Assembly (NCBI GenBank): GCA_046347035.1
Contig: JAXMGY010000001.1
Coordinates: 18,485 to 82,484 of the forward strand
Reading direction: 5' to 3'
DNA length: 64,000 bases
DNA from: Gammaproteobacteria bacterium
GTDB taxonomy: Bacteria > Pseudomonadota > Gammaproteobacteria > JAJPIJ01
In this document: positions 4,365 through 58,470 of the stretch, piece after piece
Layout: the number at the start of each line of letters is the position of its first letter
Position numbering within the stretch: position 1 is the stretch's first letter
Made by a program: the position numbers and the translations under genes
Notes under the pieces: model-generated
What the model was told of the DNA's origin: nothing
Database searches by the model: none
Seen by the model: only the letters and a program-made list of their open reading frames with translations

Positions 4365-4443
4365 CCGTCGTTCCCGCGAAGGCAGGACCCAGTCTAAGAA
4401 GCGTTGTTCTTCAACTGGATTACCGCTTGCGCGGGAATGACGA
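4365..4443 (-). repeat. MITE-like palindromic intergenic repeat, family copy A (reverse orientation)
   Basis: Reverse complement reads GTCATTCCCGCGCAAGCGGtAATCCAGTT..ACTGGGTCCtGCCTTCGCGGGaACGACG. Same architecture as seven other copies in the window. Confidence 0.75.
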
Positions 4444-5681: not shown

Positions 5682-5756
5682 GTCATTCCCGCGCAGGCGG
5701 GATTCCAGTTCAATATGAACTCATTTTGAATCGGTAGCCGCTTACGCCGCGACGAC
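5682..5756 (+). repeat. MITE-like palindromic repeat, copy B (degenerate 3' hairpin)
   Basis: GTCATTCCCGCGCAGGCGGGATTCCAGTT followed by an AT-rich spacer and a degenerate second arm ending GCGACGAC. Confidence 0.65.
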
Positions 5757-10853: not shown

Positions 10854-10930
10854 GTCATTCCCGCGCAAGCGGGAATCCAGTTAAAGATGAATTTATTTTT
10901 AACTGGGTCCCCGCCTGCGCGGGGACGACG
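10854..10930 (+). repeat. MITE-like palindromic repeat, copy C
   Basis: GTCATTCCCGCGCAAGCGGGAATCCAGTTaaagatgaatttatttttAACTGGGTCCCCGCCTGCGCGGGGACGAC. Confidence 0.8.
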
Positions 10931-29308: not shown

Positions 29309-29319
29309 ATAAGTCCTTA

Positions 29320-29455
29320 GAACCCGTCTCAAAATTGCTGCGCTCGCCATCTTGCGCCCTGGCGGTGCTCGAAATCCTCATTTACTACTATGTAAACTCC
29401 GGTTTCTGCGCTCCGACAGGGCGCAACCTGACTTCGCTCGCTAATTTTGAGACGG
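29320..29455 (+). mobile_element. Candidate non-autonomous MITE: 20-bp perfect terminal inverted repeats flanked by TA
   Basis: TA|GAACCCGTCTCAAAATT...~95 bp...AATTTTGAGACGGGTTC|TA. The perfect IR TTAGAACCCGTCTCAAAATT / AATTTTGAGACGGGTTCTAA is seen directly. Confidence 0.35.
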
Positions 29456-29470
29456 GTTCTAAATAGTGCA

Positions 29471-29546
29471 GTCATTCCCACGTACGCGGGAATCCAGTGA
29501 AAAGCGAATTATCTATTGCTGGGTCGCCGCTTTCGCGGGGACGACG
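29471..29546 (+). repeat. MITE-like palindromic repeat, copy E
   Basis: GTCATTCCCACGTACGCGGGAATCCAGTGaaaagcgaattatctattgCTGGGTCGCCGCTTTCGCGGGGACGACG. Confidence 0.75.
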
Positions 29547-53952: not shown

Positions 53953-53990
53953 ATGGCGGTCGAAATAGGTTCCGGTTGGCGCGACTTGCC

Positions 53991-54130
53991 GTCATTCCCG
54001 CGGAAGCGGGAATCCAGTCAAAAACTTATTTTTACTGGTCCCCGCTTTCGCGGGGACGACGGAAATAGCTCTATTTGAGCCAATGCGGTCGTTGCGAAGT
54101 GGCACCTATTTGCAGTCTTCTATTTAGTCA
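53991..54130 (+). repeat. MITE-like palindromic repeat, copy G, plus ~70-bp 3' extension module
   Basis: GTCATTCCCGCGGAAGCGGGAATCCAGTcaaaaacttatttttACTGGTCCCCGCTTTCGCGGGGACGACGG, then AAATAGCTCTATTTGAGCCAATGCGGTCGTTGCGAAGTGGCACCTATTTGCAGT, which is shared with copy H. Confidence 0.8.
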
Positions 54131-54566
54131 TTACTTCGCTTCCACGTTCCTTCCCCTGCATCGCGGGGGAAGGTTAGGATGGAGGTAATTCAATTCTTGC
54201 TCGAGCCAATGAGCTCGGTGCATGGATTCATGCACTGAGCAATTCATTTCACTTCTTCTCCTAGACCGTCCGGCATCAGTCCCATCGATAGGCTGTTACC
54301 AAGGTCGGAATCGGCCACGAGCCGCCAGTCGCACCTTCCCGAAAGCAGACATTGCAACGCGGCAAAGCGGACATTGATGCTTGTCCGAATTGTGGTTTAA
54401 TTTAGTACTGTATAAAACCTGAACCAAGGAGCGGGTTCTTATGCGATTTCAGCCCCTTATCCTCGATTCGTTGTCCGATGTTATCGGATAACGCGCCATG
54501 TTATACGACATTTTCGTTTCTTCTATATCGAGTTAGGCATTTGCCATAACAGGGGAACTACAAGTA

Positions 54567-55097
54567 ATGAACTCGATTTTCTTGCTATTGATTGTCGTCG
54601 TCGCAGTGGTTGTGATATTAGCTGCTGTTAAAGCCAATTCAAAAGGTGGCGTCGGAGATCAAATTTGGCCGTTCTACGCCAAGAAACCCCTTTCACAGCC
54701 AGAACAGGTGCTGTATTTCCGTCTTATCCAAGCATTACCTGACCATATCGTTCTCGCTCAAGTGCAGCTCTCAAGATTGCTTGGTGTCAAGAAAGGCAAT
54801 AACTATCAGGCTTGGTTTAACCGCATCAATCGCATGAGCGCTGACTTTGTAGTGTGCAAAAAAGATTCAAGCGTTGTTGCTGTCATCGAACTTGATGACG
54901 CCACTCATCAAAAAGAAGACCGGCAGGCCGCAGACGCAAAGAAAGACAAAGCTCTGTCCTCTGCTGATATTCGTGTCGTGCGCTGGCAAGCCAAGTCAAT
55001 TCCTGATATTGCTGCAATTCAGGCTGCGTTTATGCCTAACACTGCGGTCAACAGGGGCGCCCCAAAAGCTGCGCTTTCGGGGCGCCCGTTACCTTGA
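54567..55097 (+). CDS. DUF2726-domain protein with N-terminal TM anchor (restriction-endonuclease-like fold family)
   Basis: N-terminal TM 'IFLLLIVVVAVVVILAAV'. Core 'QPEQVLYFRLIQALPDHIVLAQVQL...MSADFVVCKKDSSVVAVIELDDATH' matches the DUF2726 pattern. Lies in a low-GC islet. Confidence 0.55.
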   Translation: MNSIFLLLIVVVAVVVILAAVKANSKGGVGDQIWPFYAKKPLSQPEQVLYFRLIQALPDHIVLAQVQLSRLLGVKKGNNYQAWFNRINRMSADFVVCKKDSSVVAVIELDDATHQKEDRQAADAKKDKALSSADIRVVRWQAKSIPDIAAIQAAFMPNTAVNRGAPKAALSGRPLP

Positions 55098-55116
55098 ACG
55101 TTAGACGCATGCAACA

Positions 55117-55554
55117 ATGCCTCAGTACTTCTGCCAAGAATGTGCGCGAATCAAATGCCTGTTACCCGAAATTGTCGGCTCTCGCTTCACGGATAACCAA
55201 TATCAGCTCGATAAGTATATTAAGCACACCGCGCCGACAAGCTTGTGTGGATACAAAACTGTATTTAAAGATCCGTCCACGGCCACGTACTCAAACTATA
55301 TTATTTCTACGCTGGCGGACGGTTATGTTGAAGTCGACGACAGAAATCGAATAAACGTAAATTATTTTGCGTCAGCGACCGCTGGATACGCGATATCCAT
55401 GGGTCACGTGGAAGGTCCAGTCTTTGGAGTCAAAGTCGTACTTGGAAATGAGCCAGATAGGATTCACGCTTATCCAATAGATGTGAGCAATATCGAAGTG
55501 ATTCGATGCCAACAGTGTGACAAGGAAATTATCCATGACAAACCATCCGCGTAA
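55117..55554 (+). CDS. Hypothetical protein with terminal CxxC pairs (split zinc ribbon)
   Basis: 'FCQEC' at the N-terminus and 'RCQQCDKE' at the C-terminus. AT-rich codon usage unlike its neighbours. No family recognised. Confidence 0.35.
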   Translation: MPQYFCQECARIKCLLPEIVGSRFTDNQYQLDKYIKHTAPTSLCGYKTVFKDPSTATYSNYIISTLADGYVEVDDRNRINVNYFASATAGYAISMGHVEGPVFGVKVVLGNEPDRIHAYPIDVSNIEVIRCQQCDKEIIHDKPSA

Positions 55555-55816
55555 CAAGCAGCTTATGCGGAACTGCGGGATTAGGTGCCTTTTTGCGCGT
55601 GTTGCTTCGTGCAACAGCTGCTCCACCCAAGGGCTGCTTAGCTAGTAGTTGAACGACCGCTTTGGAGAAATCTAGGCAACGCCCCGGTGCGTCTACTTCG
55701 GGTCGCACTCAATCATTGAACATGGTACGGTGGCAGCAGAAGCTATAGGAGAGCAAAAGGGAAAGGACGACAAGCGTAGCCGTAAGCAGTTTCTTACGTA
55801 ACTGAAGAAGTCCACT

Positions 55817-56197
55817 ATGACCGAAGACAAGGTTATTGAACTCGGGAAGCAATATTACGAGAGTCTCTTTCCAAGAAACTGTCCAAAATGTCAACGGCAG
55901 TTCCGAACGCTTCGGGAGTACTTGTTAGCTACCACCCCGATTGGACATGCCCATTCCTATGATGCAGAGATTGGCGATTGGGAACCTCTGATTCCTGTTG
56001 GTACAGCAATGTGTTCCAATTGCCGGTGCGGCACGACTATCGTGTTGCTCACCGACCAAATGGAACATTCACAAAGGTTGGCGTTGTTGGATTGGATTCG
56101 GAGCGAAACTAGAAGGCAAAGTATAAGCCCGACAGTGTTACTTGACAGCTTGCGAAATAAAGTTCGCCAACTGGTGTTGGACGAACAGGACAATTGA
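55817..56197 (+). CDS. Hypothetical protein with two CxxC motifs (zinc ribbon)
   Basis: 'NCPKCQRQF' and 'MCSNCRCG'. AT-rich. No family recognised. Confidence 0.35.
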   Translation: MTEDKVIELGKQYYESLFPRNCPKCQRQFRTLREYLLATTPIGHAHSYDAEIGDWEPLIPVGTAMCSNCRCGTTIVLLTDQMEHSQRLALLDWIRSETRRQSISPTVLLDSLRNKVRQLVLDEQDN

Positions 56198-56546
56198 AAC
56201 TTGTTCACGGTTTGCAAGCGCATTAACACAAAATGCAAATCGGGGTCAGACCACGATTATCGCAAAGAAGGTTAGCAATAGGTCGGCGACGCTTTTTGAT
56301 CGCGTGGCTGTCGCAATTGTGTCTGGGTTTTGCGCACTGGCCCTCGGCAGCATTGTCTGGTATTGATTGTCGTGGAAGTTCGCAAGTGAGAGTCTTCTGC
56401 CGATTGCACCGATAGTCTACTTGGCTATCGGCGTAGCAATGCTTGGATTTTTCTTCGTCGACAATGTCATCGTGATGCTTTTTGTATGGGTAGTCGAATT
56501 GCTGCTCCTTGTTGGAAAGTTTTAGGCCAAGCGCGGTAGAGCAAGA

Positions 56547-58275: not shown

Positions 58276-58317
58276 CGCGGAGAAAGAAAGGTTTCAATTA
58301 AGTTGGTACCAAATGTC

Positions 58318-58470
58318 GTCATTCCCGCGCAAGCGGGAATCCAGTTATAGATGAATTCATTTTTAACTGGATCCCAGCCTACCCGGGAACGACGGGATTA
58401 GCTCCGTTTGAACCGATGCGGTTGTTGCGAAGTAGCACCTATTCGCAGTTGTCTATCTTGGTGGAATAAG
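58318..58470 (+). repeat. MITE-like palindromic repeat, copy H (degenerate second hairpin), plus 3' extension module
   Basis: GTCATTCCCGCGCAAGCGGGAATCCAGTTatagatgaattcatttttAACTGGATCCCAGCCTACCCGGGAACGACGG, then GATTAGCTCCGTTTGAACCGATGCGGTTGTTGCGAAGTAGCACCTATTCGCAGT. Confidence 0.75.

Follow-up and report, generated by a model that had tools for sequence, protein, structure and literature searches.

A low-GC islet in a gammaproteobacterium-like genome is probably a decaying row of integron gene cassettes without an integrase

The integron integrase, IntI, recombines the folded bottom strand of an attC site; the partner may be attI, a further attC or a secondary genomic site. In a complete integron the array adjoins an attI and an intI gene, which encodes a tyrosine recombinase bearing the IntI-specific insertion. 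Clusters of attC sites and single attC sites that lie without an integron integrase are known as CALINs and SALINs, respectively, and have been interpreted as a step between integron capture and fixation in the genome (Cury et al. 2016, PMC4889954; Loot et al., bioRxiv 10.1101/2022.09.11.507474). Most CALINs have no intI remnants nearby, and insertion at 5'-GWT-3' sites is one way in which small CALIN or SALIN elements can originate (PMC4889954; bioRxiv 10.1101/2022.09.11.507474). Integron cassette arrays also store single-gene phage-defence functions (bioRxiv 10.1101/2024.07.02.601686; 10.1101/2024.07.02.601719), examples being the BRiCs of mobile integrons and, in the Vibrio cholerae superintegron, Epona, which combines a Mrr_cat nuclease with a two-TM holin domain (bioRxiv 10.1101/2024.07.02.601719; 10.1101/2024.07.02.601686). 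The very-short-patch-repair-type endonucleases, Vsr/DUF559, make up group 58 of the PD-(D/E)xK superfamily (Steczkiewicz et al. 2012, PMC3424549).

We report the analysis of a three-gene islet of low GC content within a 64,000-nt stretch of DNA (the window, to which all positions refer). With a probability that we put at roughly 85%, the islet is a short, decaying row of integron gene cassettes, chromosomal and without an integrase, of the CALIN/SALIN type; such integrase-less cassette elements are a known and fairly ordinary kind. The islet resembles them in its attC-bearing cassette content, in having no intI or intI pseudogene nearby, in the small size of the array, in its uncharacterised cargo and in its foreign composition, and it differs in retaining only one recognisable attC, which strictly makes it a SALIN followed by two genes derived from cassettes with decayed attC sites. 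In IntegronFinder's definition a CALIN has no intI nearby and two or more attC sites within 4 kb. The window has one clear attC, and a second, possible fossil site (55547-55797) is left unscored by our covariance model, R1; on the single site that R1 detects, the islet would fall short of the strict CALIN class and count as a SALIN.

The islet, which runs from 54124 to 56546, is the GC minimum of the window: its GC content is 0.48, where 2.4-kb stretches average 0.557 +/- 0.022, so that the sharp drop in composition described in a first-pass annotation of this DNA is borne out. The GC3 of its three genes is 0.47-0.50, whereas that of the flanking genes is 0.64-0.74. The genes, here called P1, P2 and P3, were recovered at the positions which that annotation had given; they are co-oriented and compact, with a P1-P2 gap of 19 nt, and all three are intact and, judged by dN/dS, under purifying selection. 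Its description of a foreign, compact, horizontally acquired segment, with a DUF2726 protein that has a TM anchor and a pair of small cysteine-rich proteins of no known family, likewise stands. The features of the locus are as follows, where '/' in a core site marks the recombination point.

53975-54123, + strand: left flank, a copy of a dispersed MITE/REP-like inverted repeat lying outside the array; core GTCATTCCCGCGnAAGCGGGAATCCAG ... GGTCCCCGC..GCGGGGACGACG
54124-54531, + strand: low-GC leader, 408 nt, GC 0.488
54532-54538, + strand: core site GTTAGGC (G/TT), where cassette 1 begins at its 5' end, 35 nt upstream of the P1 start codon
54567-55097, + strand: P1, 176 aa, membrane-anchored DUF2726 protein (PD-(D/E)xK, Vsr/DUF559-like), cargo of cassette 1
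55034-55106, + strand: intact attC of cassette 1, 73 bp, from covariance model and fold
55100-55106, + strand: R' core GTTAGAC, junction of cassettes 1 and 2, 17 nt upstream of the P2 start codon
55117-55554, + strand: P2, 145 aa, uncharacterised family, cargo of cassette 2, with homology from the attC core
55547-55797, + strand: possible fossil attC of cassette 2, a tentative assignment read by hand from the sequence
55817-56197, + strand: P3, 126 aa, small uncharacterised family, probable cargo of cassette 3 from the contexts of its relatives
56198-56546, + strand: low-GC tail, GC 0.484, ending at the stop codon of a convergent FecR-like gene

P1 matches Pfam DUF2726 (PF10881) with an E-value of 1e-21 and 77.4 bits, the gathering cut-off being 24.7, and has a secondary, weak match to DUF559 (E 1.6e-4). 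Its residues D93, E108, D110, D111 and H114 are invariant across 120 relatives, and residues 3-21 form an N-terminal hydrophobic helix with a Kyte-Doolittle mean of 3.45. Most likely, therefore, P1 is a DNA endonuclease tethered to the membrane, with its catalytic domain in the cytoplasm, a reading based on the Pfam match, on these conserved acidic and histidine residues and on the positive residues that follow the TM helix. With the Vsr/DUF559 enzymes it shares the weak family match and the common motif D ... (I/V)ExDD..H; it differs from them in matching no solved structure in sequence (a search against PDB sequences found nothing), in its N-terminal membrane anchor and in being carried on a mobile cassette rather than beside a cytosine methyltransferase. 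At E <= 1e-10 the relatives of P1 fall into more than 2,200 clusters, and among the 120 matches listed identity is 74-93%; a PHROG family also matches the protein, and its dN/dS is 0.08. The tail of the protein, residues 157-176, is unconserved among the relatives because the reading frame there runs through the attC.

The attC of a gene cassette has R''-L''...L'-R' architecture, with RYYYAAC ... GTTRRRY cores, unpaired spacers and extrahelical bases, and lies on the strand of the ORF, at its 3' end. The attC of P1 consists, in order, of R'' GCCTAAC, a 5-nt spacer, L'' GGTCAAC, which carries an extrahelical base, a G+C stem, a 3-nt loop, L' GTTACC, a spacer and R' GTTAGAC. Model R1, which is not IntegronFinder's own and was trained on 17 attC sites, mostly from arrays recovered through P1 and with every copy of the attC of P1 left out, gave a single hit in the 64 kb, at 55034-55106 on the + strand (54.2 bits, E 5e-12; 9 bits on the - strand), and no hit in ~125 kb of control loci. 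A structural scanner returned the same site as the sole canonical one, and it folds with z-scores of -3.3 for the top strand and -4.5 for the bottom strand, the boxes being visible in the fold.

The boundaries of the cassette follow from comparison with fetched public loci, which are numbered from L001. BLASTN of the cassette against L025-L034 matched 54532-55102/55111 at ~84% identity, and in more than ten other contigs the homology block extends from the G of GTTAGGC (54532) to the GTT of R' in the cassette's own attC, with flanks that differ between contigs (five unrelated left contexts and four unrelated right contexts). Different arrays thus contain this one cassette, with every junction precisely at a core, and several copies lie next to IntI. 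In L025, L026 and L030 it is the first cassette, adjoining a divergent integrase that scores 498.6 bits with TIGR02249, 'integron integrase' (cut-off 265); in L033 it stands second, after a different IntI (364.1 bits with TIGR02249, 45% identical to the first), and in a Novimethylophilus kurashikiensis assembly (L048) it is again second, after an integrase gene called as pieces of 267 + 60 aa. All of these are small chromosomal integrons of Betaproteobacteria, and they hold the same DUF2726 cassette (~84% identity in nucleotides, 88% in amino acids) with the same core boundaries and the same attC, which in the IntI-adjacent copy of L025 differs from ours by three substitutions. They differ from the islet in possessing IntI, attI and arrays of 2 to >9 attC sites, none of which the window has, and in that the islet's host is a gammaproteobacterium-like genome of ~56% GC. 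Adjacency to IntI is a feature of the P1 cassette, the contigs of the P2 and P3 relatives being too short to show it. Among the cassettes that neighbour P1 in the related arrays are HEPN and a restriction-modification pair of the EcoRV kind. Judged by these boundaries, cassette 1 (54532-55100) is a complete integron gene cassette, bounded by G/TT core sites and made up of a promoterless DUF2726 ORF and an intact attC.

In P2 the pairs C6xxC9 and C131xxC134, a split C4 zinc site, are conserved across 73 relatives, together with a KxxKH motif and H117, so that the two CxxC pairs noted earlier in each of the small proteins are present in this one. The protein has 6 close clusters of relatives, a profile search extends these to 291 clusters at 50% identity, and dN/dS is ~0.15. 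Searches against Pfam, NCBIfam, PADLOC and PHROG gave no significant family (the best PADLOC result was a partial, non-significant hit of 12 bits, E 0.0085, to PDC-M65B), profile searches against the PDB and Pfam gave nothing, and the AlphaFold model, at pLDDT 41, is unusable. Its homology to L002-L006 begins at 55098/55099, at the attC core (GTTAGAC, 55100 in the window; G/TTAGAC or GTTAGGC among the contexts), and to the left of this core three contexts are unrelated. In the homologues the stop codon overlaps an R'' GCCTAAC; attC hits lie directly upstream of the P2 relatives in L002 and L006 and of 8 of 13 distant relatives in metagenome loci, in all cases on the strand of the gene.

The attC of cassette 2 itself may survive as a fossil at 55547-55797. 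Its near end has R'' GCGTAAC over the P2 stop codon, the spacer AAGCA and L'' GCTTATGCGG; its far end has L' CCGTAAGC, the spacer AGTTT and R' CTTACGT, in which the G of the cleavage triplet has become C. The segment folds no better than shuffled sequences (z -0.4 to +1.1) and gave no hit to the attC model with filters off. A MITE insertion was considered as the disruptor of this site and rejected, the spacer having no significant similarity to the repeat copies.

In P3 the cysteines C22xxC25 and C69xC71, a zinc site, are invariant and C66 is conserved only in part, so that the motif is CxxC plus CxC and the second CxxC pair of the first-pass annotation falls away. The protein has a C-terminal helical hairpin, a dN/dS of 0.11-0.23 and a family of 14 clusters only. 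Its AlphaFold model (pLDDT 86.7) found no fold match in the PDB or the viral BFVD, and no significant family emerged from Pfam, NCBIfam, PADLOC or PHROG. P2 and P3 are both putative small zinc-binding proteins. In L008/L009 and in L024 an attC hit ending in GTTAGGC or GTTAAGC lies 17-18 nt before the start of the P3 homologue, with different genes upstream. Of the four independent contexts of P3, two (L007 and L020) show no attC and no core sites. L020, where 18 small unidirectional genes surround a relative of 51% identity, was considered as an integron and set aside, with a GC content of 71%, no cores and no attC hits. Within the window the 5' core of P3 is degenerate (GTAACTG), and its cassette status here rests on the relatives, from which we conclude that P3 is probably the cargo of a cassette 3.

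The sequences on either side of the genes are less readily accounted for. The tail after P3 has a trace of the 5' half of the P3 attC, GCGCATTAAC (compare GCGAATTAAC in L008), with the R'' core lost; it gave no hit to the attC model, no excess folding (z 0.06) and no homology in the fetched loci. It also holds the two hydrophobic ORFs, split by an in-frame TGA (56364-56366), that had been described earlier; the TGA and the 74-aa ORF are as reported, and the second ORF has 52 aa and ends at 56525, rather than 53 aa ending at 56529. Both are left uncalled by the gene caller in L001, the public contig of this region, and match nothing across the other fetched loci. The leader gave no attC-model hit, no homology in the fetched loci and no IntI remnant, and has no recognisable attC or attI. 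The palindromes reported upstream of P1 are present there, as hairpins at 54149-54173 and 54213-54240 and a palindrome at 54480-54492, and fold beyond shuffled sequences (z -3.8 to -5.8); each of the two hairpins is unique within the window. The most informative palindrome of the islet, overlooked in that annotation, is the 73-bp attC at 55034-55106, which overlaps the 3' end of P1. The MITE/REP-like repeat of the left flank has 6 copies in the window, including a second long copy at 58302-58456 that is 81-84% identical, and L001 (4309 bp) breaks at both long copies. Rfam returned sub-threshold noise only, and scans for sigma-70 promoters and terminators showed no enrichment.

Taken with their relatives, the three genes are each either an independently mobile integron cassette or a member of a family found as cassettes, as far as homology boundaries and attC hits indicate. 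No ORF of at least 150 aa with tyrosine-recombinase motifs occurs in the 64-kb window (54 kb upstream and 7.5 kb downstream), and tblastn with two IntI proteins found no remnant there, the best E-value being 0.37. Because P2 and P3 have only decayed attC sites here and the window has no integrase or integrase remnant, the islet reads as a fossil mini-array with one intact attC; with the conserved cores gone from their attC sites, P2 and P3 are no longer excisable. The three genes would have arrived by integrase recombination or within a piece broken from a cassette array. The integrase would then have been lost, or would never have been nearby, and the array would now be in the course of fixation in the host genome. 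What counts against an array is that one attC alone is detected in the window, the P2-P3 spacer and the tail giving neither excess folding nor a model hit, and that the leader (408 nt) and the tail (349 nt) are also of low GC content and are unaccounted for by it.

A variant of this account also takes the cassettes as real and departs from it solely in where the array came from: insertion at a secondary site (attG) by an IntI encoded elsewhere, in place of a local integron whose intI was lost. We regard it as possible and rather unlikely. It would suit a window with no IntI pseudogene and a left junction that reads ...ATCGA-G/TTAGGC; the GC content of leader and tail (0.488/0.484) suggests instead a larger foreign fragment rather than a clean insertion into host DNA, and three successive insertions, or a multi-cassette circle, would be needed. 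A scan of genome contigs for an empty site, with the FecR-like neighbour as query, found relatives of at most 52% identity and no synteny, and there is thus no insertion-free relative for comparison.

The first-pass annotation had taken P1, P2 and P3 for one acquired module, plausibly of defence or abortive infection; in such a three-gene system the nuclease would be the effector and the zinc-ribbon proteins sensors or regulators. A nuclease fold with small zinc-binding proteins is a common make-up of defence systems, and the genes are co-oriented and compact and all three foreign in composition. The 19-nt gap between P1 and P2, however, is the place where two cassettes join at an attC core. 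When all three proteins were run by tblastn against every fetched locus no co-occurrence was found: in ~35 contexts no homologue of one gene neighbours either of the others, and homologues lie scattered and unlinked, which that annotation had itself named as the observation that would speak against a module. None of the three genes has a significant match among the defence-system HMMs of PADLOC-DB 2.0. The very different family sizes (>2,200 clusters for P1 against 6 and 14 close clusters for P2 and P3) imply that P1 works without P2 and P3. The three-gene defence reading is close to refuted, and of the defence cassette idea a weakened form persists, in which any single gene could be one.

Equally improbable is a remnant of some other mobile element (a prophage, an ICE, a transposon or a MITE-bounded unit) with the attC-like palindrome as a terminator or REP, for although MITE/REP-like repeats bracket a 4.3-kb segment that includes the islet, and DUF2726 genes of at most 41% identity are carried by conjugative plasmids and appear in a small number of phage or satellite records (the only protein matches of P1 among plasmids and phages, the cassette DNA matching no plasmid) alongside the PHROG family match, the islet has no integrase, transposase or phage gene, the repeat is genome-wide with 6 copies, the bracketed segment also carries host-GC genes (FecR-like and OMP), and the palindrome, at 54 bits and on one strand only, has both integron cores, the spacers and the extrahelical base and travels with P1 in true integrons.

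For the decaying cassette row, a single-gene phage-defence role of the nuclease cassette is plausible. Like the known phage-defence cassettes, P1 is a one-gene cassette with a nuclease fold of the PD-(D/E)xK superfamily and a membrane helix, and the arrays related to it also carry HEPN and EcoRV restriction-modification cassettes; it differs from them in having no PADLOC match. From Epona it differs in that its DUF2726 domain is Vsr/DUF559-like, not Mrr-like, and in having a single TM anchor and no holin domain. A DUF2726 endonuclease of the P1 type at the inner face of the membrane would cut incoming DNA. P1 is the best candidate of the three. It has a very large number of relatives (>2,200 clusters), and in three contigs it is the first cassette next to IntI, which is the best-expressed position of an array. 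That at least one of the three cassettes carries a previously unrecognised single-gene function against phage or foreign DNA is a tentative proposal with the odds against it; if it were true, P2 (~290 clusters) and P3 (14 clusters) would represent new families of zinc-binding proteins stored in the same 'biobank'.

The analysis replaces an appealing but, in all likelihood, wrong reading of a three-gene defence system with a mechanistic one, in which cassettes became neighbours by recombination and not by function, and guilt by association should not be extended across attC junctions. The islet would offer a clean natural example of cassette fixation, with one live attC, two decayed ones, no integrase and coding sequences that remain under selection. 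It may also provide three inexpensive candidates for single-gene screens: a very widespread membrane-anchored DUF2726 cassette and two uncharacterised, putatively zinc-binding families.

The low-GC islet at 54124-56546, which lies between the Pho porin and the FecR-like/OMP pair, is a SALIN/CALIN-type element, that is, a set of stranded integron cassettes with one or more cassette recombination sites (attC, R''-L''...L'-R') but without an integrase. The sharp drop in composition reported in the first-pass annotation is borne out: the stretch beginning at 54101 is the GC minimum of the window (0.479, against a mean of 0.557 +/- 0.022 for 2.4-kb stretches), the GC3 of the three genes is 0.47-0.50 as compared with 0.64-0.74 in PhoR, PhoB, the porin, the FecR-like protein, the OMP, dihydroorotase and ATCase, and the leader (408 nt) and tail (349 nt) of the islet are also low in GC. 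The features of the islet are as follows.

54567-55097, plus strand: P1, ORF of 176 aa, membrane-anchored DUF2726 protein
55034-55106, plus strand: attC of cassette 1, a 73-bp imperfect palindrome overlapping the 3' end of P1
55117-55554, plus strand: P2, ORF of 145 aa, small Cys-rich protein
55817-56197, plus strand: P3, ORF of 126 aa, small Cys-rich protein

All three coding sequences are full length with dN/dS of 0.08-0.23, and purifying selection acts on each. The annotation also lists two hydrophobic ORFs with an in-frame TGA between them; they do exist and find no support as genes. The palindromes that it lists sit where they were placed and fold more stably than shuffled sequences (z -3.8 to -5.8); two of these were searched and each is unique in the window.

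Linkage was examined by fetching the contigs of the relatives of each gene and searching them with all three proteins. P1 has relatives in more than 2,200 clusters (74-93% identity among the 120 listed), and only six clusters of close relatives of P2 and 14 of relatives of P3 were found among 5.8 billion. A second member of the trio was absent from every fetched contig except the window's twin, the public contig L001; the neighbours of P2 relatives are other small ORFs and a group II intron, and those of P3 relatives a response regulator with a Sel1 protein, a Y1 transposase or other settings. With their homologues unlinked in the fetched contigs, P1, P2 and P3 are not a unit, and the single three-gene module proposed earlier is not supported; this is precisely the result by which the annotation said it would be refuted.

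The decisive evidence that the islet genes are integron cassettes comes from P1. The protein matches Pfam DUF2726 (E 1e-21, 77.4 bits, cut-off 24.7); DUF559 is a weak second match. The N-terminal helix of P1 is strongly hydrophobic, in agreement with its first description as a TM-anchored DUF2726 protein. A relative that is 88% identical, P0024, is encoded on at least 24 contigs. On L025, L026 and L030 it directly follows a divergently transcribed 327-aa recombinase that scores 498.6 bits against TIGR02249 'integron integrase' (cut-off 265), and on L033 it is second after a different integron integrase (IntI), 45% identical to that of the other three; the remaining contigs are one-directional arrays with varying neighbours (DUF1643, methyltransferases, a metallo-beta-lactamase-fold protein, an EcoRV restriction-modification pair). 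In a Novimethylophilus kurashikiensis assembly the integrase gene is called in pieces of 267 and 60 aa, and a P1 relative occupies the second place behind it. Junction alignment of the window with the relatives places the DNA homology between the G of GTTAGGC (54532) and the GTT of GTTAGAC (55100), with five unrelated flanks to the left of the first core and four to the right of the second; judged from this alignment, the boundaries bear the hallmark of cassettes exchanged by IntI at G|TT.

Along the attC at 55034-55106, R'' (GCCTAAC) is followed by five unpaired spacer nucleotides and then by L'' (GGTCAAC), which has one extrahelical base; after a G+C stem with its 3-nt loop come L' (GTTACC), a second spacer and R' (GTTAGAC). 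It folds with z of -3.3 on the top strand and -4.5 on the bottom strand, and the last 20 residues of P1, which are C-terminal and unconserved, are its translation. Our covariance model, R1, was built from 17 aligned attC sites (A3) from the fetched arrays, all copies of P1's own attC being excluded. On both strands of the whole window it gave a single significant match, 55034-55106 on the plus strand (54.2 bits, E 5e-12); the same site on the minus strand scored 9 bits, and nothing was returned at E <= 1 from about 125 kb of unrelated control loci. By a rule-based scanner it is the only canonical site in the window, and 3-9 sites were found per array in L025-L034. Since only three substitutions separate it from the copy beside IntI in L025, the window's attC looks intact.

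The DUF2726 cassette of L025, L026 and L030 and that of L033 are identical (same protein sequence) beside integrases that share just 45% identity, direct evidence that different integrons have recently exchanged cassettes. The loop motif AAAAGCTGCGCTTTT is common to P1's attC and several unrelated attC sites in these arrays. Arrays with the P1 cassette also include an EcoRV-type endonuclease and D12 methyltransferase as one cassette (L034 617-2361) and a HEPN-domain cassette (L025 7160-7894), both cargo of the defence type. The two-piece integrase of N. kurashikiensis (L048 6434-7423) adjoins a two-cassette array holding the P1 relative and may be a frameshifted integron integrase on the way to a CALIN. 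P0037 (L049 1509-2336), a 275-aa ORF with Pfam matches to DUF2726 (91% identical to P1) and HEPN_AbiU2, lies between the core genes carA and thioredoxin. The 10-kb locus has no called integrase, and the ORF may be a further stranded cassette that is read through into the following cassette.

The homology of P2 to L002-L006 starts at 55098/55099, the GTTAGAC core that ends P1's attC; its contexts are three unrelated ones to the left of the core and are aligned to the right of it (GTTAGRCGMA...ATG). The R'' over the P2 stop codon is GCCTAAC in the homologues and GCGTAAC in the window, and attC sites found with R1 end precisely at the core preceding the P2 relatives in L002/L004 and L006. Profile searches place P2 in an uncharacterised family of about 290 clusters at 50% identity and returned no Pfam or PDB relative; attC matches at E < 1e-3 accompany distant members in 8 of 13 metagenome loci, all on the gene's strand. 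Two CxxC pairs had been ascribed to each small protein: those of P2 (C6xxC9 and C131xxC134) are conserved, and the invariant cysteines of P3 are C22, C25, C69 and C71. Neither protein has a meaningful Pfam, NCBIfam, PADLOC or PHROG match, as the lack of a recognisable family had suggested.

A group II intron with Rfam D1-D4 and domain V/VI matches and an RT ORF split in two (L002 1547-4941, L003 1363-3419) begins directly behind the attC of the cassette with the P2 homologue and is oriented as the cassettes; it may belong to the class C introns that target attC sites. The L002 intron encloses a second one, whose 437-aa RT/maturase is intact. In L006 (584-1869) a repeat unit of ~230 nt (GAGCTAACCAGGGAGC...CTGGTTAGCTC-CAC-GTTAxxC) stands between cassettes near the P2 homologue. 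These units, unusually long attC-like spacers, hold a 30-aa ORF; 2 kb from the repeat-separated cassettes there is a Y1 transposase of the RAYT type that has a DnaA_C domain.

For P3, an attC match precedes the relatives in L008/L009 and L024 (R1, E 0.011 and 0.019), and the core that closes it, GTTAGGC or GTTAAGC, lies 17-18 nt ahead of the start codon; the genes upstream differ between L008/L009 and L024, with CCCTAAC or GCCTAAC over the stop. Because the contexts in L007 and L020 have no integron features, the cassette status of P3 in the window is the weakest link, and we consider P3 to be probably a cassette. Its AlphaFold model (md4267f633e3e) is confident (pLDDT 86.7) and predicts a helix at the N-terminus, a small beta sheet with bound zinc and a helical hairpin at the C-terminus, for which PDB and BFVD gave no credible match, none being better than TM 0.3.

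Beyond P1's attC, R1 has no match in the window even with filters off, and neither the P2-P3 spacer nor the tail behind P3 folds better than shuffles. By eye, the outer parts of a long attC can still be read at 55547-55797: R'' GCGTAAC and L'' GCTTATGCGG with AAGCA as the spacer between them at one end, and L' CCGTAAGC and R' CTTACGT with AGTTT between them at the other. The cleavage triplet is mutated from GTT to CTT, and the stretch is only a possible fossil attC. The stretch after P3 (GCGCATTAAC) resembles an attC start in L008, its R'' core gone. Neither a tyrosine recombinase nor a remnant of IntI is present in the 64 kb. One attC would thus still be intact and the others decaying, with the genes kept, and the islet matches the step between capture and stabilisation that such elements represent in the view of Cury et al. 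(PMC4889954). The array may be the leftover of an integron at this locus, a piece translocated from such an integron, or the product of insertion at a secondary site, a route shown experimentally by Loot et al. (bioRxiv 10.1101/2022.09.11.507474). No close relative was found for an empty-site comparison; the low GC of the leader and tail makes us lean towards a larger foreign fragment.

Elsewhere in the window, a MITE/REP-like dispersed inverted repeat of ~95 nt (GTCATTCCCGCGnAAGCGGGAATCCAG ... GGTCCCCGC..GCGGGGACGACG) occurs in six copies in 64 kb.

4415-4441(-), 5682-5708, 10854-10880, 29471-29497, 53991-54017, 58318-58344: copies of the MITE/REP-like repeat

Its translation accounts for the recurrent spurious peptides 'SFPRKRESS' and 'VIPAEAGIQ'. 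Only the copies at 53975-54123 and 58302-58456 have an extra ~60-nt 3' extension (81-84% identity); they are direct repeats around 4.3 kb comprising the islet and the host-GC FecR-like/OMP pair, and L001 (4309 bp) breaks at both. The pair may stem from a duplication or from recombination, or the two copies may simply share their ancestry. Immediately upstream of the copy at 29471 is a 146-bp near-perfect palindrome (29317-29462, ends TTAGAAC...GTTCTAA, about -33 kcal/mol), which was picked up by the attC scanner but left unscored by the attC covariance model.

The residues D93, E108-x-D110-D111 and H114, invariant in the Vsr/DUF559-like PD-(D/E)xK group (PMC3424549), are retained in P1, and the lysines that follow its TM helix suggest that the catalytic domain would be cytoplasmic and membrane-tethered. 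Many compact phage-defence genes reside in integron arrays, among them Epona, a single-gene example of a nuclease plus TM (bioRxiv 10.1101/2024.07.02.601719, 10.1101/2024.07.02.601686), and arrays with P1 relatives also hold HEPN and EcoRV restriction-modification cassettes, so that P1 alone as a putative defence gene is a reasonable hypothesis, albeit one that we think unlikely to be correct; PADLOC gave no match for P1. The islet is one more case of a type already known, integron cassettes without an integrase. It is of modest interest as a clear worked example, and provides three candidate cassettes for functional screens.
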